From: Trypanosoma brucei
Lineage: Eukaryota
NCBI GenBank assembly: GCA_000002445.1
Contig: CH464491.1
Location: 3,008,001 to 3,072,000 of the forward strand
Direction of reading: 5' to 3'
DNA length: 64,000 bases
The notes below the pieces were generated by a model. The model had not been told where the DNA came from. It saw only the letters and a program-made list of their open reading frames with translations, and did not search any database. Below, in pieces: positions 9,839 to 44,833 of the stretch; the first letter of the stretch is position 1; each line of letters begins with the position of its first letter. Made by a program: the position numbers and the translations under genes.

Positions 9839-11815
9839 ATGCCTGACAGCGAGGGTGCAGCTTCCATTCACGATGAGCGTCCTTCTGAAGTTCCAGAGGG
9901 CGGCTCTCCACTCGGTGAAGCAGCTATCACTTCAACGGCTAACGGCCATTCCAAGGTGAAGAGACGACGGATTCTTCAAAGGGAGATAGACAAATTCCGG
10001 CAGCAGAGTATTGAAAACGCGAAACAAACTGTAAGCAGAATAAAGGCGAGCGAAGTCGAGGTGAAGAGACGACGTGAACAGGATGCTGAGACGAGGGCAA
10101 AAAGGGCTGAAGATGTGAAGAAATCTTTGGAGGAGGAGCGTCTTTTTCTACAAAAGGTGCGTGAAAGGGAGGAGCAACGCAAGGTTGCCCAGGTTAAACT
10201 CCTTCGGACAAGCACTCCGCCACGCGAAGAGGTTAGAAGACGTATCGAGGAAGACCGCAGGAAAAACCGAGAGCGTGTACAAGCTGAGAGTGAGAAACTT
10301 CTGGCTGCTGCACGTGAGGAGGAGGAGAGGCGAATGGAGATGATCCTTAAGAGGAAGCAAGAGGAGGAGGAGGCCCCACGGAAACAGCGAAATGCTGAGC
10401 TGGAAAGGAAGGCAAAGGAGCTTGAGAACCTCAAGAAATCGTTGGAAAGGGACCGCCAGGCTATTCGGAAAGCACGTGAGGAGGAGGAGCGACGCAAAGC
10501 GCGGGAGGTGCGGATACTTCGCAGGATTGAAAAAGACTGGTGCGCGGAGGCTGTGAAAGAGTCTTTGGAGCATCGGCGAAAGATCAAAGAGCGTGTACAA
10601 GCTGAGAGTGAGAAACTTCTGGCTGCTGCACGTGAGGAGGAGGAGAGGCGAATGGAGATGATCCTTAAGAGGAAGCAAGGTGAGGAGGATGGCCCACGAC
10701 GGGTGCAAGAGTCTGAGCTTGAGAAGCAAAGGAAGGCAAAGGAGCTTGAGAACCTCAAGAAATCTTTGGAGGAGGAGCGTCTTTTTCTCAGAAAGATGCG
10801 CGAAGAGGAGGAGCAACGCAAGGTTGCCCAGGTTAAACTCCTTCGGACAAGCACTCCGCCACGCGAAGAGGTTAGAAGACGCATCGAGGAAGACCGCAGG
10901 AAAAACCGAGAGCGTGTACAAGCTGAGAGTGAGAAACTTCTGGCTGCTGCACGTGAGGAGGAGGAGAGGCGAAGGAAGATGATCCTTCAGAAAAAACAAG
11001 GGGAGGAGGAGGCCCCACGGAAACAGCGAAACGCTGAGCTGGAAAGGAAGGCAAAGGAGCTTGAGAACCTCAAGAAATCGTTGGAAAGGGACCGCCAGGC
11101 TATTCGGAAAGCACGTGAGGAGGAGGAGCAACGCAAGGTTGCCCAGGTTAAACTCCTTCGGACAAGCACTCCGCCACGCGAAGAGGTTAGAAGACGCATC
11201 GAGGAAGACCGCAGGAAAAACCGAGAGCGTGTACAAGCTGAGAGTGAGAAACTTCTGGCTGCTGCACGTGAGGCAGAGGAGAGGCGAATGGAGATGATCC
11301 TTAAGAGGAAGCAAGGTGAGGAGGATGGCCCACGACGGGTGCAAGAGTCTGAGCTTGAGAAGCAAAGGAAGGCAAAGGAGCTTGAGAACCTCAAGAGGCG
11401 TCTGGAGAAGGATCGTCTTGCCCTGCAGAAGATTCGTAAGGAGGACGACAGCGTTGACGAGACCGCATTGGCGGAGAATGGAATCGTGGAACTGCTTGAA
11501 GTCGCCCACGCTGTCGTCGAGGAAGGGGAAAAGGTTCTGCTGCAAAGAAAGCATACCACCAGGGAGGCCAGCACGCCGAGGCGCATGGAAGTGGAGAAGA
11601 AGAAAGCGAAGGCAGTGGAGGATATAAAGAAAGCCCTTGAGGAAGAGCGCTTGGCTCGGCAGAAGGAACGTGAGCAGGAGGTCCAACGCAAGGCGGAGCA
11701 GGTTCGACTGTTACGCGAGAAGATGAAGCAGCGACGCGAGGACCTGCTGAGGGCGCAGGAGGAAAAAAGGAAAAAGGCAGCTGAGGGCATTTGGGAGTTC
11801 GTGCCCGTTTCGTAG
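9839..11815 (+). CDS. Charged (E/K/R-rich) coiled-coil protein with internal tandem repeats
   Basis: 658-aa ORF. The motifs ERVQAESEKLLAAAREEEERRMEMILKRKQ, KAKELENLKKSLE and QRKVAQVKLLRTSTPPREEVRRRIEEDRRKNR recur four times. Confidence 0.7.
   Translation: MPDSEGAASIHDERPSEVPEGGSPLGEAAITSTANGHSKVKRRRILQREIDKFRQQSIENAKQTVSRIKASEVEVKRRREQDAETRAKRAEDVKKSLEEERLFLQKVREREEQRKVAQVKLLRTSTPPREEVRRRIEEDRRKNRERVQAESEKLLAAAREEEERRMEMILKRKQEEEEAPRKQRNAELERKAKELENLKKSLERDRQAIRKAREEEERRKAREVRILRRIEKDWCAEAVKESLEHRRKIKERVQAESEKLLAAAREEEERRMEMILKRKQGEEDGPRRVQESELEKQRKAKELENLKKSLEEERLFLRKMREEEEQRKVAQVKLLRTSTPPREEVRRRIEEDRRKNRERVQAESEKLLAAAREEEERRRKMILQKKQGEEEAPRKQRNAELERKAKELENLKKSLERDRQAIRKAREEEEQRKVAQVKLLRTSTPPREEVRRRIEEDRRKNRERVQAESEKLLAAAREAEERRMEMILKRKQGEEDGPRRVQESELEKQRKAKELENLKRRLEKDRLALQKIRKEDDSVDETALAENGIVELLEVAHAVVEEGEKVLLQRKHTTREASTPRRMEVEKKKAKAVEDIKKALEEERLARQKEREQEVQRKAEQVRLLREKMKQRREDLLRAQEEKRKKAAEGIWEFVPVS
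10130..11400 (+). repeat. Intragenic tandem repeat of about 4 units of 315-321 bp (~106 aa). Two alternating subtypes give a higher-order period of ~637 bp.
   Basis: The anchor agagcgtgtacaagctgagagtgagaaacttctggctgctgcacgtgagg recurs at 10270, 10588, 10909 and 11224. Confidence 0.75.
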
Positions 11816-13875
11816 AATATCTTCCGTTCGTACTCTCGTGAATGTTGGGACACTTTCTCGTTTTATTTTTGCTTTTTCTACTTGCTTTATCCACACTTTC
11901 TTTCCATGGGTGGATATTCCTTTTTATTTTTGTGCGGTGGTCTAAAAAGATGCTGAGTGGGAAAAGTTGCTGTTATTACTGAAAGTATATGTTTATGTTG
12001 AAACAAAAAAAAAAGAGGCAACAATTAAAATGTCTCATTTTTTCCATGAAGGCCTCTTTTACGAGAAGAAAGGATATATAACTGGCGGTTGAGGTCGTGT
12101 GCCTCAACCCCGGACGGTTTCTGTTTTTTGTTTTTAATCCCTTTTTGGTCACCAACGTGATCATTGTATCTGCTCGTCGTTGGTGCCGTGGTGATAAAAG
12201 TACGTTTAGGTGATGCGAAGCACGATGTAGGGAAGATGTGGTGGTGGCTGCGCTTGTATATGGACGTTGGGTTGAGGTTTTGCCGAATATACATATTTTT
12301 TTTTTCTACCGTTGCCCCCCCCCTCCCCACCACTTCTGAAATATTGGGAAGGCGAAAGTGTGAAGTGTTTGAGAAGTGGAGGATTGTGCCATGGCAGGCT
12401 TGTAATTTTGCGGTAGCCACGGCAGGTGAGTTGCTGCTGTGGGCGTGGGCGTGGGCGTGTGTATGTTGCTCGTACAATTGTTCTCTTGTTATTTTACGTG
12501 AGAGCATCTGCAGAGCACTAGCTCACGTCCAACCTTCTTCACTCCATGTAATGCTTAAGTTTTAATTTCACTCCTTTTTCTTTGTCAAAACCTACCCTGT
12601 TTTCACACGTCTTTACGCATCTCTTCCTTCTTTTCGAATTCGGTGTAATTTGTCTGTGTTGCTGTTTTACCTTCTTTTGGGGAATAACTTCTCAAATAAC
12701 TAAACAGGGAAGGAGGAGACGACATGAGGAAAGAACTCTGCAGGGCAAATGTGTAGAATCTCTGTTATACGTACGCCAAAAGACTTGTTCGTACAGAGCC
12801 AGAGGGGGTGATGATAAATTTTCTTGAAGATAGAGGAGAGTTAATGCATTTTTCATCTCATCCCTTTCCTTTTTCATCCCTCGTTTTTCCTCCTATTTGA
12901 TGTTTTCCTCCGCGGTGTTTCCGTAGCCGAACATGTCGTGTGGTGTGTGAAGGGGTGCGATCCTTTTCCCCATCATCAACAATGAAACAAGAGGAATGTG
13001 AAAAAGATAGGTGAAAGAACAGAGAGGAAAAGGGTGAGAAAACTGTGAGGGGGGGCCGTTTGGGCCAAGCAGCCCGTCTCATCGTGCCTTTCATACCTAT
13101 CGAATGTGGTGGTGTACCCCCTATCTTTTCTGTTTCTGTAAGGGGAATCTGACGGTACCCCTCTCTCTCTCTGTATGTGTGTGTGTAATTTCCTTTTGCC
13201 CTGCTTCCTGAGCCACAGCGGCCTCGAGGTGTAACTGAGCGTGATGTCTCTGCCTTCCCCTAGGCGGGGTCGGATGTAACTTTATGTGGAGAAAGAGATA
13301 GCCGATCGACTGATTTTGAAAGAAAAGAAGCCTTACCTCCATGTCTCGGAATTAGGGATGTGCCTGTACACGTATCTATGTATTTAAATGTAGTTGTGTT
13401 TAACATGGAGGGAAGAAAAGGAGGGAACAATGAAAGGACAGCAGACGGTGAGGGTAATGTGACACAATGTGATTGTAGGCACTCACTTGTACGGTAAGTG
13501 GAAGTGTTAGGTAGCAGATACGGATAAACATTTGCTGCCGGAGGAAGCAGTTTGGGGTTGTGGTGACTTTTCTTCTTTCTTTCTATTTTTTCTCTATTTT
13601 GCTGTTGTGGTTGTCAATGAAAAATGGTAGGAGAAGGTGCCGCTGCGCGCACTTTTTTGTTTCTCTTGTTATTTGGCTTTCAGATTTTATACCATATCTG
13701 TACTCTCACTGCAGCGGTTGCCTGTATTCTGTTGCACACCCTGTGGCACAAAGTCGCCCAAAACAACGGGAAACATTGCTTTGTGCATGCTACGGACGGG
13801 TAAAGTTTCGATAATACCATTTCGTACCTCACTGTTCCGTAAGCTTCAGGCACAGCCACCAGGATATTTGACACC

Positions 13876-13912
13876 TATCATTTTTTTATATTTCTTTTTT
13901 TTTTCCAATTTC
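13876..13912 (+). promoter_or_regulatory. Polypyrimidine tract upstream of the GGCT-PGM fusion gene
   Basis: tttttttatatttctttttttttttccaatttc lies immediately 5' of the ATGs at 13928 and 13940. Confidence 0.4.
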
Positions 13913-13927
13913 AAAAGCGTCAACTTC

Positions 13928-16030
13928 ATGAGGAATGCGATGGCGGATGCGACGAGCAGCCACTTGGAAGGACCCACCACTCTTGTGTTTGTCTATGGTA
14001 CTCTCCAGCGTGGAGAGAACAACTACCCCTGGTGGTTGGCCAACCCACGGCATGCCGCCTTCATTACTGTGGCGATAACTAGGAGGCGGTATCCATTATT
14101 TGTCAACCTGCTTCCTGGGAGCAGTTCCTGTTCGCCCTGTTTACTCAACCTTCCGGAAGAAGGGGAGGAAGATTTTCCCGAAGGTAGTTTTGCAGGTGTT
14201 GATAGTGACGGTCGTGTGACGGCGCATCATGTCGTGGGTGAATTGTTTGCGGTCACGGAAACTATGAAACGGTGGCTTGATGTGCTGGAGGACGTGGAAA
14301 CAGGGTTATATAGCGTTGGTACCATAGATGTTGTTCCCCTCGGCAACGCGCAGTTTGTAGAGAGAGTACTGCTTGTCGGGGAGGGCGAGGCGATACGTGC
14401 GCTGGTTTACTTCCGTGAAAGGGATTATTCAGAGGACTGGAGGAGCCCTAGTCCCAAGTGCGGCTCGACGTTGTTGAGGCGATTTTCAGCATCGGAATGC
14501 GTGCGGATTTATGGTCACCGTTTCACTGGGTCGCCTGCCCACCTCCGGGGGGCGGTGGGGTTGAGGGAAGGCCTTGAGCGGATTGGTCACCGGAGTCCCA
14601 CAGCTACCCCCGTCAACCCGAAGCCCATCGTACTATTCATTATTGACGGGATTGGGGACGTCTCATATCCGGGGTTGGGTCATCGCACCCCTCTTGAGGT
14701 CGTCTCCGGTTGTCCCTCCCGTGGCGAGGGTAGTGGCGGCACTGGTCAAGGCGACGATGAAACATTCGATAAATTTGTAGCCCCTGGAATCAATGTGGTG
14801 ACACGACATGGTGTCAGTGGTGTCATGGATGTTTTTGAAGCTGGTGTCACTTGCGGCAGCGATACGGCACACTTGTCAATTTTCGGCTATCCCCCCCAGC
14901 AGTATTACAGGGGTCGCGGAGCATATGAAGCCTTGGGAGCGGGGTTGCACCTCGATGAGGGTGATATCGCCTTCAAATGTAATTTTTCTGTTTTAGATGA
15001 GAAGACAGGCATCGTGCTGAAGCGGCGCTGCGATCGCGACTTCACACGTGAGGGACCAATTCTTTGCGAGTTCCTTGACGGTCTGGTCGTTGAAGTCGAG
15101 CCCGAACACGAGATAGGCGAAGTGAAGACCCACACGCTGAAGGTGCGCTACGCGACAGAGCACCGCTGCGGTGTGGCCATCACTGGTAACGGCCTCTCAC
15201 ATAAGATCACAGGGACAGATCCTCTCGCTGATGATCGTCCGCTGCTTCACTGCAAACCGACTGTGTCACCTGGCCACGAGGAGTACGAGGCGGCACTTTA
15301 CACTAGCCGTGTTGTCAATGCGGCATCGGAGCGTGTGAACGAGTTACTGCGGTGCCACCCAATTAACGAAACCCGGCGCGTAGAAGGGAAACAAGTTGCA
15401 AATATTGTTCTTTTCCGCGGTGCCTCAAACAAGGGATGGGTTCCACCGTTTACGGTACGCCATGGACTTAACGGCTTCATCGTGAGTCCCACATGCATCA
15501 TAAAAGGATTAGGCATCTGTTGTGGACTAAGCTCCGTGGATGCGGAGGGGGCTACTGGCGATTGGGACACAAATGTCAACGCCAAAGTGGATGCCGTACT
15601 AAAGGAACTGGGAGTTGCGAATTTGTTGGAGAAAGGTAGCGGTGATAATACCGAAGAAATCACTGCATCTCCATACAATTTTGCTGTGCTCCATGTGAAG
15701 GGTGTCGATGACGCTGGGCATGAGTGCAGTTTAACGCACAAATTGGTGATGCTGAAGAAGTGTGGTGATGCCATGCAGCGGTTGTGGGATGCCCTTCCGA
15801 CCGGAAGCACAATGGTAGTGTTGGCAGACCATTCCACACCAATTTCGCTAGGGGACCACAGCTGTGAACCGGTGCCCGTTTCTCTGGCAACTAAGGGGTC
15901 TGAAATCACGGATGGTGTGCAGTTCTATAGCGAGGTCGAATGTGTTGCAGGAGCTCTCGGACGGTTCCGCGGTGAGGTTCTAATGGACGTTGTCAAGCGT
16001 GCGCACCATTGGTATCACTACCGCCAGTAA
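13928..16030 (+). CDS. Fusion protein: an N-terminal gamma-glutamyl cyclotransferase (AIG2/GGACT-like) domain and a C-terminal archaeal-type 2,3-bisphosphoglycerate-independent phosphoglycerate mutase (apgM) domain of the alkaline-phosphatase-like metalloenzyme superfamily. The listed ORF starts at 13637.
   Basis: The N-terminus has LVFVYGTLQRGENNYPWW and the GELF...LDVLEDVETGLYSV pattern of the AIG2/GGACT fold. The C-terminal half has apgM-like motifs: PIVLFIIDGIGD, GHRTPLEVV, APGINVV, GSDTAHLSIFGYPP, RGRGAYEALGAGL, DIAFKCNF, LHVKGVDDAGHE and VLADHSTPISLGDHSCEPVP. The ORF stretch upstream of 13928 is pyrimidine tract. Confidence 0.75.
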   Translation: MRNAMADATSSHLEGPTTLVFVYGTLQRGENNYPWWLANPRHAAFITVAITRRRYPLFVNLLPGSSSCSPCLLNLPEEGEEDFPEGSFAGVDSDGRVTAHHVVGELFAVTETMKRWLDVLEDVETGLYSVGTIDVVPLGNAQFVERVLLVGEGEAIRALVYFRERDYSEDWRSPSPKCGSTLLRRFSASECVRIYGHRFTGSPAHLRGAVGLREGLERIGHRSPTATPVNPKPIVLFIIDGIGDVSYPGLGHRTPLEVVSGCPSRGEGSGGTGQGDDETFDKFVAPGINVVTRHGVSGVMDVFEAGVTCGSDTAHLSIFGYPPQQYYRGRGAYEALGAGLHLDEGDIAFKCNFSVLDEKTGIVLKRRCDRDFTREGPILCEFLDGLVVEVEPEHEIGEVKTHTLKVRYATEHRCGVAITGNGLSHKITGTDPLADDRPLLHCKPTVSPGHEEYEAALYTSRVVNAASERVNELLRCHPINETRRVEGKQVANIVLFRGASNKGWVPPFTVRHGLNGFIVSPTCIIKGLGICCGLSSVDAEGATGDWDTNVNAKVDAVLKELGVANLLEKGSGDNTEEITASPYNFAVLHVKGVDDAGHECSLTHKLVMLKKCGDAMQRLWDALPTGSTMVVLADHSTPISLGDHSCEPVPVSLATKGSEITDGVQFYSEVECVAGALGRFRGEVLMDVVKRAHHWYHYRQ

Positions 16031-16601
16031 CGGTGCAGCTGCCACAACTAATAAGCATGCGGGGGAAGAAAAATTTTCTTCTTGTGGATGCTTATCGGAT
16101 GCTCATCGCACACCGTTGGAAGAGTCAGGGTCGCTGGGGCGGTGCCTCCCGTGTAACTTCCACCGCGAGTCGGTTCCTCGTATATGCACTCGTAAATACG
16201 CTTTCTGTACTGTTTCCCCCTGAATCAGCACCTGTAAGTACTGTAGTTACCGCCATCTGCCGTCTTCTTTTTCTTATTTCGTGTGACTACTGATGTTTCC
16301 AGCCGGGGGCAACGAGCTTGCTTATATTTTTTTTTGCCAGGAGACTCTTCAGTAGGGGCGAAGGTTAATCAGGTATAGGAAAGAGAAAGCATATATTCCC
16401 TATCTGTTGTTTTGTACTCGATTCCGTGCCGAAGGTGCTAGCAAACTTTAAGTAAAGCGCGCACTGGTGCTGTTTGCTCCTTTGCCCTCGCGGCCGACGT
16501 CACCGTAATAGGAACTGCCCAGGAAGGAGCAGAGATCGGCCTGGGAAGCGTCAAAATCCCAACCCCAGCGGACTGTTTGCCGAGATGTAAACAACTCTGC
16601 G

Positions 16602-18392
16602 GTGGCAGGGGATGAGGAAGATGGGGGCGAGGAGGTTGGCGGAGATGGCAGTAGTGGTAGTAGAGACAGTAGTTATAATCAACCGCCTAATACTATTATG
16701 AACGATCTGTCCGCAGTCGGCGACCGCAGCAGCAGCGCAGTGACGGAAGGTAGTGCAATCTCTAGTGGCTCTGGTGGCACCGCGGCGGCTACAAGCAGCG
16801 ATTGTACTCCAACCACCTCCCGTGCTCGAAGTGTGGTTCAGGAGCAGCTGTCTCGGACAACTTCACTTCTTGAAGATGTCCATCCGTGTGTGCAGGCAAC
16901 TGGTGGTGACCTTGGTAAGGACTCGACGAGTGACCTGGGTTGCCCCTATGCGGTTACAGTCGGAAGGACGCCCCACCGGGAGCTGGGGCCGCCCCCCTCA
17001 GGGGGGGGTTCGGCGACGACGCTAAACACTGGGAATTCTGAAGTCCCTGCGGCGACGCATCTCCCCCAACAAGGCGGGGAGCATGAGCTGAACCTCGATG
17101 CGTGCATTCATCCCAAACAAGTGGCCTTTCTCACTGGAATCGGGGAAATGGTACGGCAGCATGCTCGTCAGCACAGGCAGCAGAACCGCGCCACCAGGAG
17201 ACGTGACGACGCCTCGGCATGCAGCAGCTCCTGTTCCGACACAGAACGTCATGCAGCCCGACTTTCTGTTGGAGCACTGATTAGCGCTGAAGGACAGCGC
17301 GTTCGCATGCATCTTGTGCAGGCAGCAGCTTCGGCGTCGTCATCTGGTTGCCAAGCGGACAGCAGTAGCTCCGAAAAACGGAGTTGCGAGGGAATTTGTG
17401 GCCGCTATCAGACAGCCTTCAGTCTTTGCACAATTATTTCTGCCTTTCAACCCCGTAAGGCTTCCTATTGGCAGGATGACCACCTTGTGGAGCCCTATCA
17501 CGGCGAAAGTTATGGACCCATTGCACAGCGCTCTCGTTTCAATAAAAGCGATGACAACAGCGTTAGTGGGGAAAGGGACGATGATGTTAACAGAAGTGGT
17601 CCCGCGGCCGACGGTGGCCTTCTGTGCAATGCCGCGTCCTCCGCGGAGAACGGCGACTATAACGATGAGAACTTTGAACCAGCAGACGGCGCACCGAGCG
17701 ATGTTGCGGATGATGATCGTGCGATGAGATCCTACGGCAAGATGCTGATCCACAATGGTTGTCGCAGCGACAATGTCTTTAGTGACGCCTTTTTCCTCGA
17801 TAAGGGCAACATTACCGGTGGAGAGCGACGCAAGAAGCTGATCGTTTTGCACTCCTACCGTGCCTCTGTTATCTCTTTTGTTGACAAAAAAGTTCTGAAG
17901 AAGGACATCAACAATCACTTCTACGTTCAGCACCCAGAGTTGGAGGTTCGTGAAATCAAGCTAACTCACATGCGAGCTATACGCACGGATTTGCTGAATC
18001 TCGCGTTGGAAGAGAATTCTCCAGTTGAATTAGCCACCGTGGCGTATGCAAACTGGTACTTTGAGCGGCTTATCATGCGCGGAATGGTTGGTAAGCGGAA
18101 CCGTCGTCTTGCGCTTGCCGTCTGTCTTTTGTTGGCAATCAAATTTGTCGAGACAGGTGATGTACACCGCAAGATACAGTATCTGAAGGCGCGCATTCGG
18201 CACGACGACGCATTCAAGGGGGTGACGTGGCAGAAAACACAAGAGTGGGAGTTCTGTGCGTACGTTGGGCTCGAGTTTACACTTCTTCCTTCCCCCGGAA
18301 ACCGTGTTGTCGAAACTCACCTGGAGCGGTTACTTGCTCAAGTGAACTTGACATCCCAAGAGTATTACAGTAAGAAGTTTGCGTGGCCCTAA
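16602..18392 (+). CDS. Cyclin-box protein (PHO80-like or other cyclin) with a long low-complexity N-terminal extension
   Basis: In the 596-aa ORF, the C-terminal ~180 aa resemble a cyclin fold: MRAIRTDLLNLALEENSPVELATVAYANWYFERLIMRGMVGKRNRRLALAVCLLLAIKFVE. The N-terminal 380 aa are S/A/G-rich. Confidence 0.55.
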   Translation: MAGDEEDGGEEVGGDGSSGSRDSSYNQPPNTIMNDLSAVGDRSSSAVTEGSAISSGSGGTAAATSSDCTPTTSRARSVVQEQLSRTTSLLEDVHPCVQATGGDLGKDSTSDLGCPYAVTVGRTPHRELGPPPSGGGSATTLNTGNSEVPAATHLPQQGGEHELNLDACIHPKQVAFLTGIGEMVRQHARQHRQQNRATRRRDDASACSSSCSDTERHAARLSVGALISAEGQRVRMHLVQAAASASSSGCQADSSSSEKRSCEGICGRYQTAFSLCTIISAFQPRKASYWQDDHLVEPYHGESYGPIAQRSRFNKSDDNSVSGERDDDVNRSGPAADGGLLCNAASSAENGDYNDENFEPADGAPSDVADDDRAMRSYGKMLIHNGCRSDNVFSDAFFLDKGNITGGERRKKLIVLHSYRASVISFVDKKVLKKDINNHFYVQHPELEVREIKLTHMRAIRTDLLNLALEENSPVELATVAYANWYFERLIMRGMVGKRNRRLALAVCLLLAIKFVETGDVHRKIQYLKARIRHDDAFKGVTWQKTQEWEFCAYVGLEFTLLPSPGNRVVETHLERLLAQVNLTSQEYYSKKFAWP

Positions 18393-19758: not shown

Positions 19759-20640
19759 ATGGCAAACTGTACGACTCAGGCATCCGATGAGGAGAATGGT
19801 TTGGCGTTTCTGTGTTGGCGTCGTTGCTTGTCGCTGCTCCTTCCCTCCCACTGCGCAGTGCAAGGGAAGACCGTTGACGAGATGTGGATGCGGTACATTT
19901 TTGACCGATACACGGAGCCACAAAGGTACTATCACACAATGGCACATGTTGAAGAGATGTTGAATTACTTTCTTCAATACCAGAAGGGAACCCGCCCAGA
20001 TCATAGGCTGCCAGAGGACGGTGCGAGGTGTCTCGCTTTGGAACTTGCGGTACTGTTCCATGATGTTGTGTACGACCCGAAGCGCGGTGACAACGAGGAG
20101 TGCAGCGCAGATTGGTTCTCTGCCTTCTGGGAGGAGTGCCGAGAATTGGCTGTTTCATGGGAAACTAAGATGACAAGTGGAGACGATCGGTTACAGCAGC
20201 AGCAGAGGGAGAAGTTGATATGGCACAACGCCAAGGCCGCTATGGACATTAAGATGACAGTGGTGGATTTTATTCTCCGTACGAAGCACCACATGTCTGT
20301 CGAACCGTGTTACAGGAGAGACTTGCCTGGCGGGGGCGAGGGCGCTTTGGAGACGGGAAACCCACCACCGGATCTTCATTTGTTTCTTGACCTCGACTTG
20401 GCAATCCTTGGAAGTGAAGCCGACAGGTACATGCGGTATGCGAGTGATGTGAGACGAGAATACGCGTGGTACAGCGATGAAGAATTTTCGCGGGGTCGCA
20501 TTGCCTTTTTACAAGGGTTTCTGAATTACCCGCAGTGGTACAAAACTAAATATTTTTGCGATGCGATGGAGGAAACGGCGAGAGCCAACGTAACGGCAGA
20601 GCTAAAGTTGTTGGAGGAACGGCTTGGGAGAACCGCGTAA
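19759..20640 (+). CDS. HD-domain metal-dependent phosphohydrolase-like protein
   Basis: 293-aa ORF. His/Asp ligand motifs are spaced as in the HD superfamily: YHTMAHVEEML ... LELAVLFHDVVYDPKRGDNEECSA ... LDLAILG. Confidence 0.55.
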   Translation: MANCTTQASDEENGLAFLCWRRCLSLLLPSHCAVQGKTVDEMWMRYIFDRYTEPQRYYHTMAHVEEMLNYFLQYQKGTRPDHRLPEDGARCLALELAVLFHDVVYDPKRGDNEECSADWFSAFWEECRELAVSWETKMTSGDDRLQQQQREKLIWHNAKAAMDIKMTVVDFILRTKHHMSVEPCYRRDLPGGGEGALETGNPPPDLHLFLDLDLAILGSEADRYMRYASDVRREYAWYSDEEFSRGRIAFLQGFLNYPQWYKTKYFCDAMEETARANVTAELKLLEERLGRTA

Positions 20641-21095: not shown

Positions 21096-21752
21096 ATGTC
21101 TGAGTTCCAAAGGTTTGTTAAGCTTCTTGAGCAGACAGATGGCCGCGACAAGATTCTAAAGGCATTTTCTGGTGTCTTTAAGGCACTTGGCTCCCTCGAC
21201 ACCTGTCAGAGCCGCTCAAGTGCGTTTGGCGCCGTCGGGAAGTCTATTGGAGACGCCCGTTGTCTCCTTCGTATGGCGAAGTGGGTGGGTGATGTGCCCA
21301 AGATGCAGAATACCATTCAGGATTGCAGGGCAAAGGGCAAGGTCAACATGAAAGAGGTCTTGAAGTTCCTCCGCGTGCTGTGCAACTTCCTCTATGTGCT
21401 CGGCGACAATGTGGCCTTCGTCGCCCGCTACAATTTGTTGGCTTTGCGGCACAAGAGCATCCACCTAAAGGCAAAAACAGCGCAATTCTGGGGATTCTTC
21501 CTTGCCGCTGTGCTTGATGTTGTTGCCCTTTACGGTGCGCTTCAGAAGCGTGCGAGTGACCCCGCCACAAGCAAGAAGGAGATGAAGGCAGCACTTATCA
21601 GTTTCGTAAAGGATGCCTCGGACACCCTCGTAACAATGGCCTTTGTTGGTTACCTCCGTGAAGTCTGGCGACCCAGCGCGACAACTTCTGGAGCTCTCAC
21701 TGCAGTTGCTGGTGGTGTTGCAACGTATTTGAACTGGAACAAGATCAAATAG
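21096..21752 (+). CDS. PEX11: Peroxisomal/glycosomal membrane protein PEX11
   Basis: Starts MSEFQRFVKLLEQTDGRDKILKAFSGVFKALG, which carries the conserved PEX11 N-terminal GRDK-containing amphipathic helix. At 218 aa it has the typical PEX11 size, with a hydrophobic C-terminal segment (ALTAVAGGVATYLNW). Confidence 0.8.
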   Translation: MSEFQRFVKLLEQTDGRDKILKAFSGVFKALGSLDTCQSRSSAFGAVGKSIGDARCLLRMAKWVGDVPKMQNTIQDCRAKGKVNMKEVLKFLRVLCNFLYVLGDNVAFVARYNLLALRHKSIHLKAKTAQFWGFFLAAVLDVVALYGALQKRASDPATSKKEMKAALISFVKDASDTLVTMAFVGYLREVWRPSATTSGALTAVAGGVATYLNWNKIK

Positions 21753-23504: not shown

Positions 23505-25340
23505 GTGGATGCGAGAGGTTGCGCAATGGCGTCGTTAGCAGCAAAAAAAGACGGAGGTGACATCAATGGGGGCCCGTCTGAGGAAGAGGATCAGCTCCAA
23601 CAACTCTTAGGGACTTCTTGTTGTGTTAATCTCAGCGACTCCACGGTGAAGCGTGGTTTTCTGTTGGAAGTGCGATACCTCTGGCTGCCCAGGTTGCTAA
23701 GTGGTAACGGCACTACTGGTGTAGCTCCACAACTCTATGGGTTTGTGCGCATAAAGGACGCGGACCACCGTATTAGTGGCTGGTTCCCCATTGACTGTAT
23801 TGACCTTAAGGAAACTGGAGGGGCTAATGGAGCTACGAGTTGCGGCAGCAGCTACCCTACGAACAGCGCAGCTTACAACTCAATGGTGGTAGCAAAGAGC
23901 AAAATCACGCATCCCATAATTAGTCCGGTATACCGGGAGGTTACACCGGGAATGGTACGGACCCGCCGTGAGGGGAAGCAGCTCGACTTCTTTGAGGAAC
24001 GCCTCCTCCGCGACTGCCGGACTCCCACCACAGTGCGATACTTCATATACCTGTGTAAGTTTGCCTTTCCTCCCTGGTACTATGCGCCTTATGGTATGCT
24101 GAATCGCGAATACGATCCTTTAGCACCTTTAAGCGACGCAGAGCGGGAGGCGTTGCGTTTCACTGAGGGGAGCACCAATGAAAGCATTGATACTAACCCT
24201 TTCATTCGAGATGCTTACCTTTGCCCGTTCTCCCTCCGTATATATAGTACCTTCGAGCAGATGCAGCACGAAACCCTAAGATATCGCGCTGGTCACTTGC
24301 ACCCCCCCGGACTTGAGATTTATCGGGACGACACCCGTGGGTTTTCCATGTTCGAGGTGAATGGGAGTCGTCACGTCACGTACTGCCGTCACTTGTTCTT
24401 GTTAGGGAAGTCGTTCCTTGAGAACAAGTTGGCCGGACATGACGTACACAACTACTACTTTTATGTTGTGTGCCTTCATCATCGGCACTATCCACACTAC
24501 ACGGATGACACCTCCGCTATGTATTTTGTTGGGTATTTCACATGGGAGAAGCAGGTGACTGACAACAATCTGGCATGCATCGTCACTTTACCATACTTTA
24601 TGGGTGGGGGAGCCTCATCGGGACAACAGAATGACTTAAGCGATGATCGCGGCCCAGTTGGGGCAGACACTGCCTCCCGTGAAGGGGACACACCCAAATT
24701 AGGTCATTTTGGGCAATTCATGATCGCTGCGAGCTACGAACTGGCTTACAGGAGGAAGAATGTTGGCTCCCCAGAAAAACCACTCACAGACTTGGGAGCA
24801 GCTGCCTACGACCGCTACTGGAAACGTGTTCTCATAAAGTGGATGCACACGTTACTGGAGGGTAACGCCGCAGCAATTACCGTTGACGACGACGCCGGTG
24901 ATGATGGTCAGTCTGTAACGATTGTGGTGGCCCATGAGAACGAGGCGAAAATGGCGGCCCCGGGGGCCTTAAAGCGACCGCGTCCCGGCACCACTGATGG
25001 GAGCGGCTGCGCGGAGGCGGTGCGGGGTGCACGTGTGGCCGAGGGAGACACCCTGGTGGACACAACCGTTCGGAGTATAGCCAAGCAAGTACGGTTGGAA
25101 GAGGCGGATGTGCTGCGAACTTTGTTACAAATGGGTGTTCTTCACCTTAATGCAGAGGATAGAAGTATGCGCGTCGTCATCCCCGTCTCTTTTGTCAACA
25201 GAGAGTACGGTAAAATGAAAAAGTGGGCACATGACATGACGCGCGCTGAATTTGACCCCAAACTGCTCACTGGCCGTGGCGGGCCTGCCTGGCTTGTTAA
25301 CACACCATCGCCGCGTCGGCACAATCAGCACCAGAGCTGA
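23505..25340 (+). CDS. MYST-family histone acetyltransferase
   Basis: Contains HLHPPGLEIYRD and FEVNGSRHVTYCRHLFLLGKSFLENKL. An acetyl-CoA-binding region is also present, with NNLACIVTLPYFMG ... GHFGQFMIAASYELAYRR ... PEKPLTDLGAAAYDRYWKRVLIKW. Confidence 0.8.
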   Translation: MDARGCAMASLAAKKDGGDINGGPSEEEDQLQQLLGTSCCVNLSDSTVKRGFLLEVRYLWLPRLLSGNGTTGVAPQLYGFVRIKDADHRISGWFPIDCIDLKETGGANGATSCGSSYPTNSAAYNSMVVAKSKITHPIISPVYREVTPGMVRTRREGKQLDFFEERLLRDCRTPTTVRYFIYLCKFAFPPWYYAPYGMLNREYDPLAPLSDAEREALRFTEGSTNESIDTNPFIRDAYLCPFSLRIYSTFEQMQHETLRYRAGHLHPPGLEIYRDDTRGFSMFEVNGSRHVTYCRHLFLLGKSFLENKLAGHDVHNYYFYVVCLHHRHYPHYTDDTSAMYFVGYFTWEKQVTDNNLACIVTLPYFMGGGASSGQQNDLSDDRGPVGADTASREGDTPKLGHFGQFMIAASYELAYRRKNVGSPEKPLTDLGAAAYDRYWKRVLIKWMHTLLEGNAAAITVDDDAGDDGQSVTIVVAHENEAKMAAPGALKRPRPGTTDGSGCAEAVRGARVAEGDTLVDTTVRSIAKQVRLEEADVLRTLLQMGVLHLNAEDRSMRVVIPVSFVNREYGKMKKWAHDMTRAEFDPKLLTGRGGPAWLVNTPSPRRHNQHQS

Positions 25341-38854: not shown

Positions 38855-41800
38855 ATGCTTTCAGTTTACAAACCGCGCTTTCTTACGGGAGAAAAGGGAC
38901 GTGGAGACGGACGGGGAGGAAAACACGGAAGGCAAACTTTACTGGGTCCACCGTCCCGGGGAGCCGTATGGCCAGCAGTTGCAGGAGGGGGAGCATGGCC
39001 CATAGCTGCACCGGTGCACCTCAGCCCACTTCCTGTGCCGGTGGCAACGTCGCATTGGGCGCTCTCCGGCTGTCGATTGCCGGCTACCATTCCGACAGGG
39101 AAGCGTTTGATTGGGTCCTGTGTCAATGAGATGAGCAACCTCAACGATTCTGAGAAAGCGATATGTGAGCTCATGGTTGGCTTTTTGGAGCACAAATCTG
39201 CAACTGAGGCCGAGTGTATCATGTCGGAGGTGGACGAAATGGTTTGTTCCCGTCGCTTGCTCTCACAGTACAGTGGTGTGTACGCTAGTAAATGCCCCGG
39301 TGACGCAAATGGAGGGAAAGACGAACCGTTGCGTGGAAAAACTCAGCTTATTCGCTTCCTTCGGCAGCAGCAAGAGGAAAAGGAGGAGCGGGAGAAGAAC
39401 TGGGAGCAGAGGCGGCGCCAGCGCATCGCCAGGGAAGCAGCGGAGAGAAGAGAATCACGAGAGAGGTGGAAGAAAATGTTTCTGCACAACGTAGAGGGAA
39501 AAAGCAAAAGGGAAGCCCTTCCAAAAACAGCTAAGAGAAAGGCACAAATTGGAAGGTGTATCGACAAAGAAGCTGCCAATATAAAACACAAACAACGACG
39601 GTGTGAAGACGAGGACTTTAGATTAACATCTCTAAGCGATTCCACTTTCACTGACTCTTTATGCGGCTACCCACAACATGTGCCGAACGTGGCAAGGCCC
39701 ATCAGAGTGCCAGCTGCAACCGAGCGATTCGCTAATGCAAGCGAAAAACTCACTAGGGAGGTGGCAGGTGCGCAATATATACGAGTCCCAAGGGAAATGC
39801 CGACAAGCATACGCGTCGCTTCTTCTGACAGCGAGAATACGGAAGATATTATCGAAAAAACAGATAAGTTGGTGGGGGACAGGTTAGAGGTGTTCAAACA
39901 ACGGCAAAACACAAACGACACGAGATCCAAAGAATCATTTATTGCAGCAATTCAGAAAAGTTATAGCGCACAGGGTGATGAAAGACCACTCACGACAACA
40001 GAAAACCAGCAGCAAATGACAAAAAAAGATAATCAACTGAGAAGCACAGAAGTGGAGAAAAAAACCCAGGACCCAACATCAATTACAGCTACCATCCGAT
40101 ACACCAAACAGGAGGATGACATCAAAAATAAACAAAACGCCATTTCAGAAAGAGGACTCAGTACATCAACGAACCAAAAACAAACAGAAACATTAATTAC
40201 TTCTAACAATCAACATTCAGTTGATGAGCGCCACCAATCAGACGATCGACAGCACTCCAAACGTTCTGAATCCAAGAAGGAGTTGCAGGAATCATTGCAT
40301 TCCAACAAGTCTGCAGTGAAGGATGGTGAACCTGAACTTGAGGCTTCTCAAGGTTCGAAGAAGTCACAGCGGTCCCGTGAGTCTATTCGTGAGGGTTTTG
40401 CTGATGATTTGCAATCACAGGGTTCTCAACATTCTAAACGTTCTGAATCCAAGAAGGAGTTGCAGGAATCACTACATTCCAACAAGTCTGCAGTGAAGGA
40501 TGGTGAACCTGAACTTGAGGCTTCTCAAGGTTCGAAGAAGTCACAGCGGTCCCGTGAGTCTATTCGTGAAGGTCTTGCTGATGATTTGCAATCACAGGGT
40601 TCTCAACATTCTAAACGTTCTGAATCCAAGAAGGAGTTGCAGGAATCACTACATTCCAACAAGTCTGCAGTGAAGGATGGTGAACCTGAACTTGAGGCTT
40701 CTCAAGGTTCGAAGAAGTCACAGCGGTCCCGTGAGTCTATTCGTGAGGGTTTTGTTGATGATTTGCAATCACAGGGTTCTCAACATTCTAAACGTTCTGA
40801 ATCCAAGAAGGAGTTGCAGGAATCACTACATTCCAACAAGTCTGCAGTGAAGGATGGTGAACCTGAACTTGAGGCTTCTCAAGGTTCGAAGAAGTCACAG
40901 CGGTCCCGTGAGTCTATTCGTGAAGGTCTTGCTGATGATTTGCAATCACAGGGTTCTCAACATTCTAAACGTTCTGAATCCAAGAAGGAGTTGCAGGAAT
41001 CACTACATTCCAACAAGTCTGCAGTGAAGGATGGTGAACCTGAACTTGAGGCTTCTCAAGGTTCGAAGAAGTCACAGCGGTCCCGTGAGTCTATTCGTGA
41101 GGGTTTTGCTGATGATTTGCAATCACAGGGTTCTCAACATTCTAAACGTTCTGAATCCAAGAAGGAGTTGCAGGAATCACTACATTCCAACAAGTCTGCA
41201 GTGAAGGATGGTGAACCTGAACTTGAGGCTTCTCAAGGTTCGAAGAAGTCACAGCGGTCCCGTGAGTCTATTCGTGAGGGTCTTGCTGATGATTTGCAAT
41301 CACAGGGTTCTCAACATTCTAAACGTTCTGAATCCAAGAAGGAGTTGCAGGAATCACTACATTCCAACAAGTCTGCAGTGAAGGATGGTGAACCTGAACT
41401 TGAGGCTTCTCAAGGTTCGAAGAAGTCACAGCGGTCCCGTGAGTCTATTCGTGAGGGTTTTGTTGATGATTTGCAATCACAGGGTTCTCAACATTCTAAA
41501 CGTTCTGAATCCAAGAAGGAGTTGCAGGAATCATTGCATTCCAACAAGTCTGCAGTGAAGGATGGTGAACCTGAACTTGAGGCTTCTCAAGGTTCGAAGA
41601 AGTCACAGCGGTCCCGTGAGTCTATTCGTGAGGGTTTTGTTGATGATTTGCAATCACAGGGTTCTCAACATTCTAAACGTTCTGAATCCAAGAAGGAGTT
41701 GCAGGAATCATTGCATTCCAACAAGTCTGCAGTGAAGGATGGTGAACCTGAACTTGAGGCTTCTCAAGGTTCGAAGAAGTCACAGCGGTCCCGTGAGTCT

Positions 41801-44800
41801 ATTCGTGAGGGTTTTGTTGATGATTTGCAATCACAGGGTTCTCAACATTCTAAACGTTCTGAATCCAAGAAGGAGTTGCAGGAATCACTACATTCCAACA
41901 AGTCTGCAGTGAAGGATGGTGAACCTGAACTTGAGGCTTCTCAAGGTTCGAAGAAGTCACAGCGGTCCCGTGAGTCTATTCGTGAGGGTTTTGTTGATGA
42001 TTTGCAATCACAGGGTTCTCAACATTCTAAACGTTCTGAATCCAAGAAGGAGTTGCAGGAATCATTGCATTCCAACAAGTCTGCAGTGAAGGATGGTGAA
42101 CCTGAACTTGAGGCTTCTCAAGGTTCGAAGAAGTCACAGCGGTCCCGTGAGTCTATTCGTGAGGGTTTTGTTGATGATTTGCAATCACAGGGTTCTCAAC
42201 ATTCTAAACGTTCTGAATCCAAGAAGGAGTTGCAGGAATCATTGCATTCCAACAAGTCTGCAGTGAAGGATGGTGAACCTGAACTTGAGGCTTCTCAAGG
42301 TTCGAAGAAGTCACAGCGGTCCCGTGAGTCTATTCGTGAGGGTTTTGTTGATGATTTGCAATCACAGGGTTCTCAACATTCTAAACGTTCTGAATCCAAG
42401 AAGGAGTTGCAGGAATCACTACATTCCAACAAGTCTGCAGTGAAGGATGGTGAACCTGAACTTGAGGCTTCTCAAGGTTCGAAGAAGTCACAGCGGTCCC
42501 GTGAGTCTATTCGTGAAGGTCTTGCTGATGATTTGCAATCACAGGGTTCTCAACATTCTAAACGTTCTGAATCCAAGAAGGAGTTGCAGGAATCATTGCA
42601 TTCCAACAAGTCTGCAGTGAAGGATGGTGAACCTGAACTTGAGGCTTCTCAAGGTTCGAAGAAGTCACAGCGGTCCCGTGAGTCTATTCGTGAGGGTTTT
42701 GTTGATGATTTGCAATCACAGGGTTCTCAACATTCTAAACGTTCTGAATCCAAGAAGGAGTTGCAGGAATCACTACATTCCAACAAGTCTGCAGTGAAGG
42801 ATGGTGAACCTGAACTTGAGGCTTCTCAAGGTTCGAAGAAGTCACAGCGGTCCCGTGAGTCTATTCGTGAGGGTTTTGTTGATGATTTGCAATCACAGGG
42901 TTCTCAACATTCTAAACGTTCTGAATCCAAGAAGGAGTTGCAGGAATCATTGCATTCCAACAAGTCTGCAGTGAAGGATGGTGAACCTGAACTTGAGGCT
43001 TCTCAAGGTTCGAAGAAGTCACAGCGGTCCCGTGAGTCTATTCGTGAGGGTTTTGTTGATGATTTGCAATCACAGGGTTCTCAACATTCTAAACGTTCTG
43101 AATCCAAGAAGGAGTTGCAGGAATCACTACATTCCAACAAGTCTGCAGTGAAGGATGGTGAACCTGAACTTGAGGCTTCTCAAGGTTCGAAGAAGTCACA
43201 GCGGTCCCGTGAGTCTATTCGTGAGGGTTTTGTTGATGATTTGCAATCACAGGGTTCTCAACATTCTAAACGTTCTGAATCCAAGAAGGAGTTGCAGGAA
43301 TCACTACATTCCAACAAGTCTGCAGTGAAGGATGGTGAACCTGAACTTGAGGCTTCTCAAGGTTCGAAGAAGTCACAGCGGTCCCGTGAGTCTATTCGTG
43401 AAGGTCTTGCTGATGATTTGCAATCACAGGGTTCTCAACATTCTAAACGTTCTGAATCCAAGAAGGAGTTGCAGGAATCACTACATTCCAACAAGTCTGC
43501 AGTGAAGGATGGTGAACCTGAACTTGAGGCTTCTCAAGGTTCGAAGAAGTCACAGCGGTCCCGTGAGTCTATTCGTGAGGGTTTTGTTGATGATTTGCAA
43601 TCACAGGGTTCTCAACATTCTAAACGTTCTGAATCCAAGAAGGAGTTGCAGGAATCATTGCATTCCAACAAGTCTGCAGTGAAGGATGGTGAACCTGAAC
43701 TTGAGGCTTCTCAAGGTTCGAAGAAGTCACAGCGGTCCCGTGAGTCTATTCGTGAGGGTTTTGTTGATGATTTGCAATCACAGGGTTCTCAACATTCTAA
43801 ACGTTCTGAATCCAAGAAGGAGTTGCAGGAATCACTACATTCCAACAAGTCTGCAGTGAAGGATGGTGAACCTGAACTTGAGGCTTCTCAAGGTTCGAAG
43901 AAGTCACAGCGGTCCCGTGAGTCTATTCGTGAAGGTCTTGCTGATGATTTGCAATCACAGGGTTCTCAACATTCTAAACGTTCTGAATCCAAGAAGGAGT
44001 TGCAGGAATCACTACATTCCAACAAGTCTGCAGTGAAGGATGGTGAACCTGAACTTGAGGCTTCTCAAGGTTCGAAGAAGTCACAGCGGTCCCGTGAGTC
44101 TATTCGTGAGGGTTTTGTTGATGATTTGCAATCACAGGGTTCTCAACATTCTAAACGTTCTGAATCCAAGAAGGAGTTGCAGGAATCATTGCATTCCAAC
44201 AAGTCTGCAGTGAAGGATGGTGAACCTGAACTTGAGGCTTCTCAAGGTTCGAAGAAGTCACAGCGGTCCCGTGAGTCTATTCGTGAGGGTTTTGTTGATG
44301 ATTTGCAATCACAGGGTTCTCAACATTCTAAACGTTCTGAATCCAAGAAGGAGTTGCAGGAATCATTGCATTCCAACAAGTCTGCAGTGAAGGATGGTGA
44401 ACCTGAACTTGAGGCTTCTCAAGGTTCGAAGAAGTCACAGCGGTCCCGTGAGTCTATTCGTGAGGGTTTTGTTGATGATTTGCAATCACAGGGTTCTCAA
44501 CATTCTAAACGTTCTGAGTCCAAGAAGGAGTTGCAGGAATCACTACATTCCAACAAGTCTGCAGTGATGACTAATGGCTTCTCTGTTGATGTTAGGAATT
44601 CTGGTGGTTGTCGACAGGAAAAGAACTTTTCGGATTGTGTTGGACCGTTGTTTTCCTCGAGGTCGCATTTGTCTGTTCACATGGATACACGTGGTGATGT
44701 TGATGTTTCTCCTCCTTTTCATGATATTTCTAGTGCTGGTGCTGGTGCTGAAGCTCCGCTGTCAATGGGACAGTCTGTTTCTTCTTTAGATGCTTTACCG

Positions 44801-44833
44801 ATGCCGGAGTTTGTTGGGCCGCTTAAAGGTTAA
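38855..44833 (+). CDS. Large repeat protein of 1992 aa. It has a unique basic/acidic N-terminal region of ~460 aa, then 24 tandem 59-aa repeats, then a unique C-terminal ~90 aa. An alternative start is at 39131 (MSNLNDSEKA).
   Basis: Uninterrupted ORF through the repeat array. The unit is QSQGSQHSKRSESKKELQESLHSNKSAVKDGEPELEASQGSKKSQRSRESIREGF(A/V)DDL. Confidence 0.75.
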   Translation: MLSVYKPRFLTGEKGRGDGRGGKHGRQTLLGPPSRGAVWPAVAGGGAWPIAAPVHLSPLPVPVATSHWALSGCRLPATIPTGKRLIGSCVNEMSNLNDSEKAICELMVGFLEHKSATEAECIMSEVDEMVCSRRLLSQYSGVYASKCPGDANGGKDEPLRGKTQLIRFLRQQQEEKEEREKNWEQRRRQRIAREAAERRESRERWKKMFLHNVEGKSKREALPKTAKRKAQIGRCIDKEAANIKHKQRRCEDEDFRLTSLSDSTFTDSLCGYPQHVPNVARPIRVPAATERFANASEKLTREVAGAQYIRVPREMPTSIRVASSDSENTEDIIEKTDKLVGDRLEVFKQRQNTNDTRSKESFIAAIQKSYSAQGDERPLTTTENQQQMTKKDNQLRSTEVEKKTQDPTSITATIRYTKQEDDIKNKQNAISERGLSTSTNQKQTETLITSNNQHSVDERHQSDDRQHSKRSESKKELQESLHSNKSAVKDGEPELEASQGSKKSQRSRESIREGFADDLQSQGSQHSKRSESKKELQESLHSNKSAVKDGEPELEASQGSKKSQRSRESIREGLADDLQSQGSQHSKRSESKKELQESLHSNKSAVKDGEPELEASQGSKKSQRSRESIREGFVDDLQSQGSQHSKRSESKKELQESLHSNKSAVKDGEPELEASQGSKKSQRSRESIREGLADDLQSQGSQHSKRSESKKELQESLHSNKSAVKDGEPELEASQGSKKSQRSRESIREGFADDLQSQGSQHSKRSESKKELQESLHSNKSAVKDGEPELEASQGSKKSQRSRESIREGLADDLQSQGSQHSKRSESKKELQESLHSNKSAVKDGEPELEASQGSKKSQRSRESIREGFVDDLQSQGSQHSKRSESKKELQESLHSNKSAVKDGEPELEASQGSKKSQRSRESIREGFVDDLQSQGSQHSKRSESKKELQESLHSNKSAVKDGEPELEASQGSKKSQRSRESIREGFVDDLQSQGSQHSKRSESKKELQESLHSNKSAVKDGEPELEASQGSKKSQRSRESIREGFVDDLQSQGSQHSKRSESKKELQESLHSNKSAVKDGEPELEASQGSKKSQRSRESIREGFVDDLQSQGSQHSKRSESKKELQESLHSNKSAVKDGEPELEASQGSKKSQRSRESIREGFVDDLQSQGSQHSKRSESKKELQESLHSNKSAVKDGEPELEASQGSKKSQRSRESIREGLADDLQSQGSQHSKRSESKKELQESLHSNKSAVKDGEPELEASQGSKKSQRSRESIREGFVDDLQSQGSQHSKRSESKKELQESLHSNKSAVKDGEPELEASQGSKKSQRSRESIREGFVDDLQSQGSQHSKRSESKKELQESLHSNKSAVKDGEPELEASQGSKKSQRSRESIREGFVDDLQSQGSQHSKRSESKKELQESLHSNKSAVKDGEPELEASQGSKKSQRSRESIREGFVDDLQSQGSQHSKRSESKKELQESLHSNKSAVKDGEPELEASQGSKKSQRSRESIREGLADDLQSQGSQHSKRSESKKELQESLHSNKSAVKDGEPELEASQGSKKSQRSRESIREGFVDDLQSQGSQHSKRSESKKELQESLHSNKSAVKDGEPELEASQGSKKSQRSRESIREGFVDDLQSQGSQHSKRSESKKELQESLHSNKSAVKDGEPELEASQGSKKSQRSRESIREGLADDLQSQGSQHSKRSESKKELQESLHSNKSAVKDGEPELEASQGSKKSQRSRESIREGFVDDLQSQGSQHSKRSESKKELQESLHSNKSAVKDGEPELEASQGSKKSQRSRESIREGFVDDLQSQGSQHSKRSESKKELQESLHSNKSAVKDGEPELEASQGSKKSQRSRESIREGFVDDLQSQGSQHSKRSESKKELQESLHSNKSAVMTNGFSVDVRNSGGCRQEKNFSDCVGPLFSSRSHLSVHMDTRGDVDVSPPFHDISSAGAGAEAPLSMGQSVSSLDALPMPEFVGPLKG
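40253..44567 (+). repeat. Perfect-to-near-perfect tandem array of 24.4 units of 177 bp (59 codons, in frame), inside the CDS
   Basis: The anchors cactccaaacgttctgaatccaagaagg at 40253 and cattctaaacgttctgaatccaagaagg at 40430 give a period of 177. The few variant sites (ttt/ctt, gct/gtt, cta/ttg) define three unit subtypes. Confidence 0.95.

Follow-up and report, generated by a model that had tools for sequence, protein, structure and literature searches.

A kinetoplastid gene that joins a GGACT-like domain to an ApgM-type phosphomutase-like domain

One reading frame, one fusion protein

Do two enzyme domains that are normally separate proteins occur in a single trypanosome polypeptide, and if so, what might that polypeptide do? 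The question is raised by an open reading frame (ORF) in a 64,000-nucleotide stretch of Trypanosoma brucei DNA (GenBank contig CH464491.1, positions 3,008,001 to 3,072,000; the window). A first-pass annotation of the letters alone had placed a GGCT/AIG2-like domain and an ApgM-type domain in this ORF. It offered two explanations: a second phosphomutase-like enzyme with an appended cyclotransferase, or two genes merged by a frameshift or an assembly error. We favor, with moderate confidence, a reading in which one gene encodes one polypeptide, with the ApgM-type domain as catalytic core and the GGACT-like domain as an accessory module.

The ORF spans positions 13637 to 16030 on the + strand, with its first ATG at 13928 and a TAA stop at 16028-16030. 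Its translation from that ATG is identical to a T. brucei-group database protein (SCU68759.1/XP_067079852.1) and 99% identical to T. b. gambiense CBH18171.1. By synteny the gene is probably Tb927.11.11490, and the Leishmania orthologue carries the tag LmjF.28.2220. A Pfam search of the 700-amino-acid (aa) protein returned significant matches to all three expected families, GGACT (PF06094), PhosphMutase (PF10143), and Metalloenzyme (PF01676), and the motifs named in the first-pass annotation (YGTL, DGIGD, GSDTAHL, KGVDDAGHE, and ADHSTP) all lie where it had put them.

The same three-domain architecture was found in Trypanosoma congolense, T. cruzi, T. conorhini, and T. rangeli; in Lotmaria, Novymonas, Leptomonas, and several Leishmania species; and in free-living Bodo saltans and unnamed metagenome proteins. 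In all, more than 25 independent orthologues from independent assemblies and metagenome contigs carry the fusion without a break, as does every named kinetoplastid species recovered. The GGACT-ApgM fusion was seen only in kinetoplastid-type sequences, and the mammalian host is without it. An exhaustive profile search with the N-terminal domain (E < 1e-30) returned eight clusters at 50% identity. Seven of these contain fused proteins; the eighth is represented by P0131, which stands alone and has two GGACT domains. Two metagenome proteins of about 1,200 aa (P0022 and P0130) have the same fusion with long insertions. The fusion had been called unusual, which holds in that the two domains normally occur apart; within Kinetoplastea, however, every named species recovered has it, and existing records already annotate it.

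Indeed, the databases name the protein [quoted passage not shown] ("iPGAM-like protein, putative"), and one Leishmania record reads [quoted passage not shown] The fusion gene is already in databases. A full-text literature search by gene identifiers and by domain and family names turned up no publication on its product. One candidate paper (PMC5098729) concerns an unrelated histidine-phosphatase "PGM-like" fold.

Two neighboring genes would give a superficially similar ORF if a frameshift, a misassembly, or read-through annotation had joined them. We found no support for such an artifact, the only related annotation oddity being a 747-aa TREU927 gene model (EAN80102.1) that begins at an upstream ATG. 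Against it stand the unbroken fusion, seen across many species in separately made assemblies and also in metagenome contigs, and the full-length AlphaFold prediction, a single compact model with a predicted template modeling score (pTM) of 0.90. The segment between the domains is conserved and structured, and no polypyrimidine tract of at least 12 nucleotides (nt) lies within the ORF (13928-16030). On these grounds we reject the merger, whose probability we regard as close to nil.

Polypyrimidine tracts do flank the ORF. The nearest upstream tract is followed by an AG and is a candidate trans-splice acceptor signal (Table 1). Another lies further upstream at 13567-13600, and the next one downstream (16263-16280) precedes the following gene. 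Spliced-leader sequence was sought in short public contigs that bear orthologues (L068-L077) and look genomic, and none was found. The extra 47 aa of the TREU927 model start MLRTGKVSIIPFRTSLFRKLQ, a presequence-like stretch, and then cross the polypyrimidine tract. Orthologue models begin at the position of 13928 and do not have this extension, which is probably 5′ untranslated region.

The inter-domain linker (aa 176-232) is 22-51% identical among orthologues. In the full-length model, aa 181-230 form helices with block values of the predicted local distance difference test (pLDDT) of 90-96. When the N-terminal 225 aa were folded alone, aa 181-225 fell to 53-78. Because confidence in this block is high in the full-length model and low when the C-terminal domain is missing, the models suggest that the linker packs on the mutase domain. 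P0132, a 1703-aa ENA metagenome protein without a Pfam match, gave 23 separate matches to the N-domain/linker profile, all at profile positions 136-193, just past the GGACT core. It resembles a repeat protein made of a linker-like unit.

The C-terminal domain is ApgM-like and keeps its active-site residues

The C-terminal domain matches PhosphMutase at aa 293-480 (E = 1.8e-43) and Metalloenzyme at aa 232-687 (E = 1.4e-22). Among NCBIfam models, the best were PRK04024, the archaeal ApgM equivalog (score of 315.3; cutoff, 489), and TIGR00306, the ApgM subfamily (279.3; cutoff, 320), so that the domain is ApgM-like yet under the curated thresholds. A PDB search returned archaeal ApgM PH0037 (2zkt) with an E value of 3e-50, and Foldseek gave a template modeling (TM) score of 0.85 to the same structure. 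PH0037 and Thermoplasma acidophilum ApgM (3idd/3kd8) have the same fold (Foldseek E values of 1e-28 to 1e-30), and the PH0037 alignment shows 35% identity. Shared motifs are DGxGD, GSDTAH, RGRG, RRxxR, HR, HPIN, DxxGH, and DHSTP...H. Unlike archaeal ApgM, the kinetoplastid protein has an N-terminal GGACT domain and a linker.

Other families of the superfamily fit less well. Homoserine-kinase-like, PhpG, and other paralogous models scored 184 or less, far under the ApgM models, and the phosphopentomutase (DeoB) model PRK12383 scored 11.7 bits against a cutoff of 254. Trypanosomatids have a glycolytic cofactor-independent phosphoglycerate mutase (iPGAM) of the GpmI type, which the first-pass annotation had rightly treated as a different enzyme. 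The T. brucei (3nvl) and Leishmania mexicana (3igy) structures belong to the same alkaline-phosphatase-like metalloenzyme superfamily and share its general chemistry; however, they are only remote relatives, aligning partially at 11-16% identity. No iPGM_N match was found by Pfam. The glycolytic enzyme has another cap domain, and its gene is distinct and not a recent paralogue of the fusion gene.

The nearest nonfused relatives are stand-alone "metalloenzyme domain" proteins of plants (about 495 aa) and Mucoromycota (about 425 aa), which are 40-48% identical to the C-terminal domain. They belong to the same eukaryotic clade, have no GGACT domain, and read RRADR where kinetoplastids read RRCDR.

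We compared 28 motif residues across 48 sequences from eukaryotes, comprising 47 full-length proteins and a partial Angomonas model (P0060). The residues were D240, G241, D244, S311, D312, H315, R328, R330, K350, R366, R367, D369, R370, E411, H412, R413, D431, D435, H477, R483, R497, D545, K591, D594, H598, D634, H635, and H644. Across the full-length set, plants and Mucoromycota included, these residues hardly vary; the exceptions are single conservative changes in a Trypanosoma vivax-like protein (P0006) and in two fungal proteins (P0041 and P0074). The partial model lacks the last seven. The binuclear metal ligands and the predicted Ser nucleophile (D240, S311, D594, H598, D634, H635, and H644) are invariant. 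D240, G241, and D244 are likewise invariant in the 47 full-length sequences and are conserved in 63 prokaryotic ApgM proteins. The role of S311, within GSDTAHL (aa 310-316), is predicted by analogy to the alkaline phosphatase superfamily (compare Ser62 of Bacillus stearothermophilus iPGAM, S62A entry 1o99).

Eukaryotic ApgM differs from prokaryotic ApgM in active-site motifs

The prokaryotic comparison set comprised those 63 ApgM proteins, taken from genome contigs. Eukaryotic and prokaryotic ApgM have 59 positions in common, among them all metal ligands, the Ser, and the Arg and His residues of the cap domain. A further 24 positions are invariant in eukaryotes and differ from the prokaryotic majority, including K350, D369, C309, E411, T430, D435, and P521-T522. 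Gly occupies the position of D369 in 100% of the sampled prokaryotic proteins, Arg that of K350 in 100%, and Ala that of C309 in 94%. At 13 positions the eukaryotic clade departs from a residue that prokaryotes conserve at 90% or more, as with the Arg of DGxGDR, which is V245 here. Compared with prokaryotic ApgM, the eukaryotic proteins have more acidic active-site motifs. Two motifs of the eukaryotic proteins, CGSDTAH[LM]S and GDIAFK[SC]N, occurred in no ApgM relative among 185,579 prokaryotic species genomes.

Three cysteines beside the catalytic motifs are invariant or nearly so in eukaryotic ApgM: C309 (14852-14854, in CGSDTAH), C414 (15167-15169, in EHRCG), and C523 (15494-15496, in PTCII). 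Prokaryotic ApgM has mostly Ala at the C309 and C414 positions. Kinetoplastids have an additional Cys, C368 (15029-15031), in RRCDR. These eukaryotic cysteines could act as a redox switch or bind an additional metal.

In a published phylogeny, eukaryotic ApgM is traced back to the last eukaryotic common ancestor, with an Asgard archaeal source and patchy retention thereafter (PMC11976288); the paper makes no mention of the GGACT fusion. Among 66 prokaryotic apgM loci, none had a GGACT-like ORF within 6 kb, and the positive control (L001) was recovered. Since the loci are mostly archaeal, skewed to Thermococci and other archaea, this result is weak negative evidence on a functional link.

The N-terminal domain is conserved although its predicted catalytic residue is not

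Pfam GGACT matched aa 20-171 of the protein (E = 2.9e-9; 38.0 bits against a gathering threshold of 22.8), and the N-terminal domain has the GGCT beta-barrel fold. Leaving aside the fused orthologues and P0131, the top named matches to the profile were animal GGACT proteins (oyster and copepod, the latter named "gamma-glutamylaminecyclotransferase C-like") and protist sequences, which argues that this is a genuine domain of the eukaryotic GGACT family. Human and mouse GGACT/A2LD1 (3jub, 3juc, 1vkb, and 2kl2) are stand-alone proteins of about 150 aa. In contrast, the kinetoplastid domain is fused, has a lineage-specific insertion (acidic, Trypanosoma-specific, at about aa 77-99, with low pLDDT), and does not conserve the catalytic Glu across orthologues. 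A GGCT-fold domain also ends allophanate hydrolase/urea amidolyase (4iss and 5i8i; Pfam AH_C), at 14-15% identity. There the partner is an amidase-signature enzyme, and the domain order differs from that of the kinetoplastid fusion.

The catalytic residue of human GGACT, E82, was located by aligning the sequences of 3jub (wild type, LDDFES) and 3jud (E82Q, LDDFQS), and its equivalent here is E121 in LDVLED. An invariant glutamate, E105 (in GELF), aligns with human E66 and not with E82. The window protein keeps both E121 and YGTL (Y23-G-T-L26), as do the T. congolense, T. cruzi, T. conorhini, T. rangeli, Leptomonas, Lotmaria, Novymonas, and Bodo proteins. Across the 27 fused orthologues, however, E121 is replaced in eight and Y23 in five. 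The E121 substitutions are Q in Leishmania martiniquensis, L. orientalis, and L. utingensis, K in Porcisia, L in L. tarentolae, H in P0006 (probably T. vivax, which we presume from its accession), F in P0028, and Y in P0029. Y23 is C in L. major (where E121 is kept) and L. tarentolae and H in Porcisia.

In Leishmania, the N-terminal domain is conserved as much as the C-terminal domain (identity ratio, 0.94-1.01) whatever residue stands at position 121. Since the Glu varies while the domain remains constrained, selection appears to maintain a function that does not need the canonical catalytic Glu. As judged from these sequence patterns, the domain has most likely been conserved to give structure, bind a ligand, or regulate the mutase, and not for canonical cyclotransferase catalysis, which very probably has been lost in several Leishmania lineages. 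For the window protein itself, the chances that it has its putative cyclotransferase activity are roughly even.

Proposed function and alternatives

From the architecture, conservation, folds, and residue patterns described above, we infer how the protein may work, the class of its substrate, and an accessory role for the GGACT domain. In the reading that we favor, the C-terminal two thirds would form the conserved part that does the catalysis, a cofactor-independent phosphotransferase or mutase of the ApgM type, descended from the eukaryotic ApgM lineage that stands alone in plants and Mucoromycota. Catalysis would use a binuclear metal center (D240, S311, D594, H598, D634, H635, and H644) and a phospho-Ser311 intermediate. 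The cap domain, with its many Arg, Lys, and His residues (R328, R330, K350, R366, R367, R370, H412, R413, H477, R483, and R497) would hold a small anionic phospho-substrate, possibly, and not certainly, 3-phosphoglycerate (3PG)/2-phosphoglycerate (2PG) or else a related phospho-acid. The GGACT domain would be an accessory module docked through the structured helical linker. In the T. brucei group, with YGTL and E121 kept, it may still cyclize a gamma-glutamyl amine to 5-oxoproline. The suggestion of a second phosphomutase-like enzyme with an appended cyclotransferase therefore survives as to architecture, a non-GpmI enzyme with a GGACT-like domain; the word "cyclotransferase" is unsafe for the family as a whole, given the loss of the Glu in 8 of 27 orthologues.

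Several points weigh against this account. The PRK04024 and TIGR00306 scores fall short of the curated ApgM cutoffs. The changes from R to K350, G to D369, A to C309, and Arg to V245 affect positions nearly invariant in prokaryotic ApgM, and the substrate may therefore not be phosphoglycerate. The equivalence of E82 and E121 comes from a profile alignment and not from a residue-level structural superposition, and the invariant E105 might be an alternative catalytic residue, in which case orthologues without E121 might still be active. The accessory role is itself read from patterns of conservation.

A fusion of two enzyme families invites a "Rosetta stone" interpretation, in which the GGACT and ApgM domains catalyze consecutive steps on one metabolite. 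For example, an amine or 5-oxoproline could be released from a phosphate-bearing gamma-glutamyl conjugate, and the phosphoryl group could then be transferred or removed. We consider such a bifunctional enzyme possible but doubtful. The equivalent of the catalytic Glu is lost in several orthologues without relaxed constraint, the plant and fungal ApgM proteins, of the same clade and with an identical residue signature, have no fused GGACT, no GGACT-like gene accompanies the 66 prokaryotic apgM loci within 6 kb, and no candidate substrate is known. A variant holds that the ancient eukaryotic ApgM clade is nonglycolytic and works with GGACT on an amine-bearing or gamma-glutamyl-linked phospho-metabolite in an undescribed two-step pathway, possibly metabolite repair or polyamine/gamma-glutamyl turnover, the Leishmania cyclotransferase half now being a pseudo-enzyme regulatory domain. 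We think this unlikely.

Another alternative is a redundant or back-up glycolytic phosphoglycerate mutase (PGAM) that converts 3PG to 2PG, with a functionally irrelevant N-terminal domain. Archaeal ApgM, the closest characterized family, has PGAM activity. The top NCBIfam and PDB matches are ApgM, and the Arg and His cap residues are common to both. A phylogenetic survey takes eukaryotic ApgM as isofunctional with other PGAMs (PMC11976288). However, the scores lie under the curated equivalog cutoffs, the eukaryotic clade has changed at the 13 positions that prokaryotic ApgM conserves, and an irrelevant N-terminal domain would not match the C-terminal domain in conservation. We judge a back-up PGAM to be quite improbable. 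A bulk glycolytic role is also argued against by the eukaryote-specific changes in active-site motifs together with plant genetics, at two loci that we take to be of the ApgM type.

The favored reading, an ApgM-type core with a GGACT accessory module, offers a lead for parasite biochemistry rather than a new kind of system. Both halves come from well-known enzyme families, and their covalent association has been kept alike in free-living Bodo and in the parasites Trypanosoma and Leishmania. If the C-terminal domain is not a glycolytic PGAM, the "iPGAM-like" annotation in every trypanosomatid genome would be misleading, and this would hold too for the plant and fungal orphan genes of the ApgM-like kind, which have the same residue signature. 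Repeated loss of the catalytic Glu under maintained constraint would be a clear case from nature in which a catalytic domain becomes a noncatalytic module.

Table 1. Features of the fusion gene and its upstream region (window positions)
Feature	Position	Strand	Remark
In-frame upstream extension of the TREU927 gene model (EAN80102.1, 747 aa)	13787..13927	+	upstream ATG
Polypyrimidine tract	13891..13906	+	then AG at 13916, 12 nt 5′ of ATG; candidate trans-splice acceptor signal
Complete coding sequence, 700 aa + stop: GGACT-like domain, helical linker, ApgM-like phosphomutase domain	13928..16030	+	
N-terminal GGACT/AIG2-like domain, aa 17-175	13976..14452	+	
YGTL, aa 23-26, substrate-carboxylate-binding motif of GGCT-fold enzymes	13994..14005	+	
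E121 in LDVLED, equivalent of human GGACT catalytic E82	14288..14290	+	aligned 3jub/3jud
Structured linker, aa 176-232; helices 188-198, 204-207, 209-218	14453..14623	+	
ApgM-type (archaeal-type, cofactor-independent) phosphomutase-like domain, alkaline-phosphatase/metalloenzyme superfamily, aa 233-693	14624..16006	+	
DGIGD, aa 240-244, metal-ligand motif on first beta-strand	14645..14659	+	
S311 in CGSDTAHL, predicted phospho-enzyme nucleophile	14858..14860	+	invariant
RRCDR, aa 366-370, cap-domain basic motif	15023..15037	+	
KGVDDAGHE, aa 591-599, metal ligands D594, H598	15698..15724	+	
ADHSTP...H644, aa 633-644 (ADHSTP 633-638), metal ligands D634, H635, H644	15824..15859	+	

Neighboring genes and other features of the window

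All plausible genes listed in the window sit on the + strand. Downstream of the fusion gene, the ORF at 16602-18392 has a weak cyclin-box match and is taken to be Tb927.11.11500, a CABLES-like cyclin-box protein (PMC7876812). Further downstream are a 293-aa ORF without a Pfam match (19759-20640), PEX11 (21096-21752), and a MOZ/SAS histone acetyltransferase (23505-25340).

Upstream, the ORF at 9839-11815 (+) contains a 315-bp (105-aa) tandem repeat at 10168-11396 (3.9 copies; 78% match). The ORF is strongly purine skewed (GC skew and AT skew both 0.295), and long spurious antisense ORFs overlap it. By synteny it may be Tb927.11.11480, which appears in the literature among quorum-sensing pathway genes. 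A second repeat, of 177 bp (59 aa), lies at 40259-44567 (24.3 copies; 98% identity) and makes up most of the 1992-aa ORF at 38855-44833 (+). At the end of the window (62001-64000), GC content is 0.386, compared with about 0.45-0.54 elsewhere.

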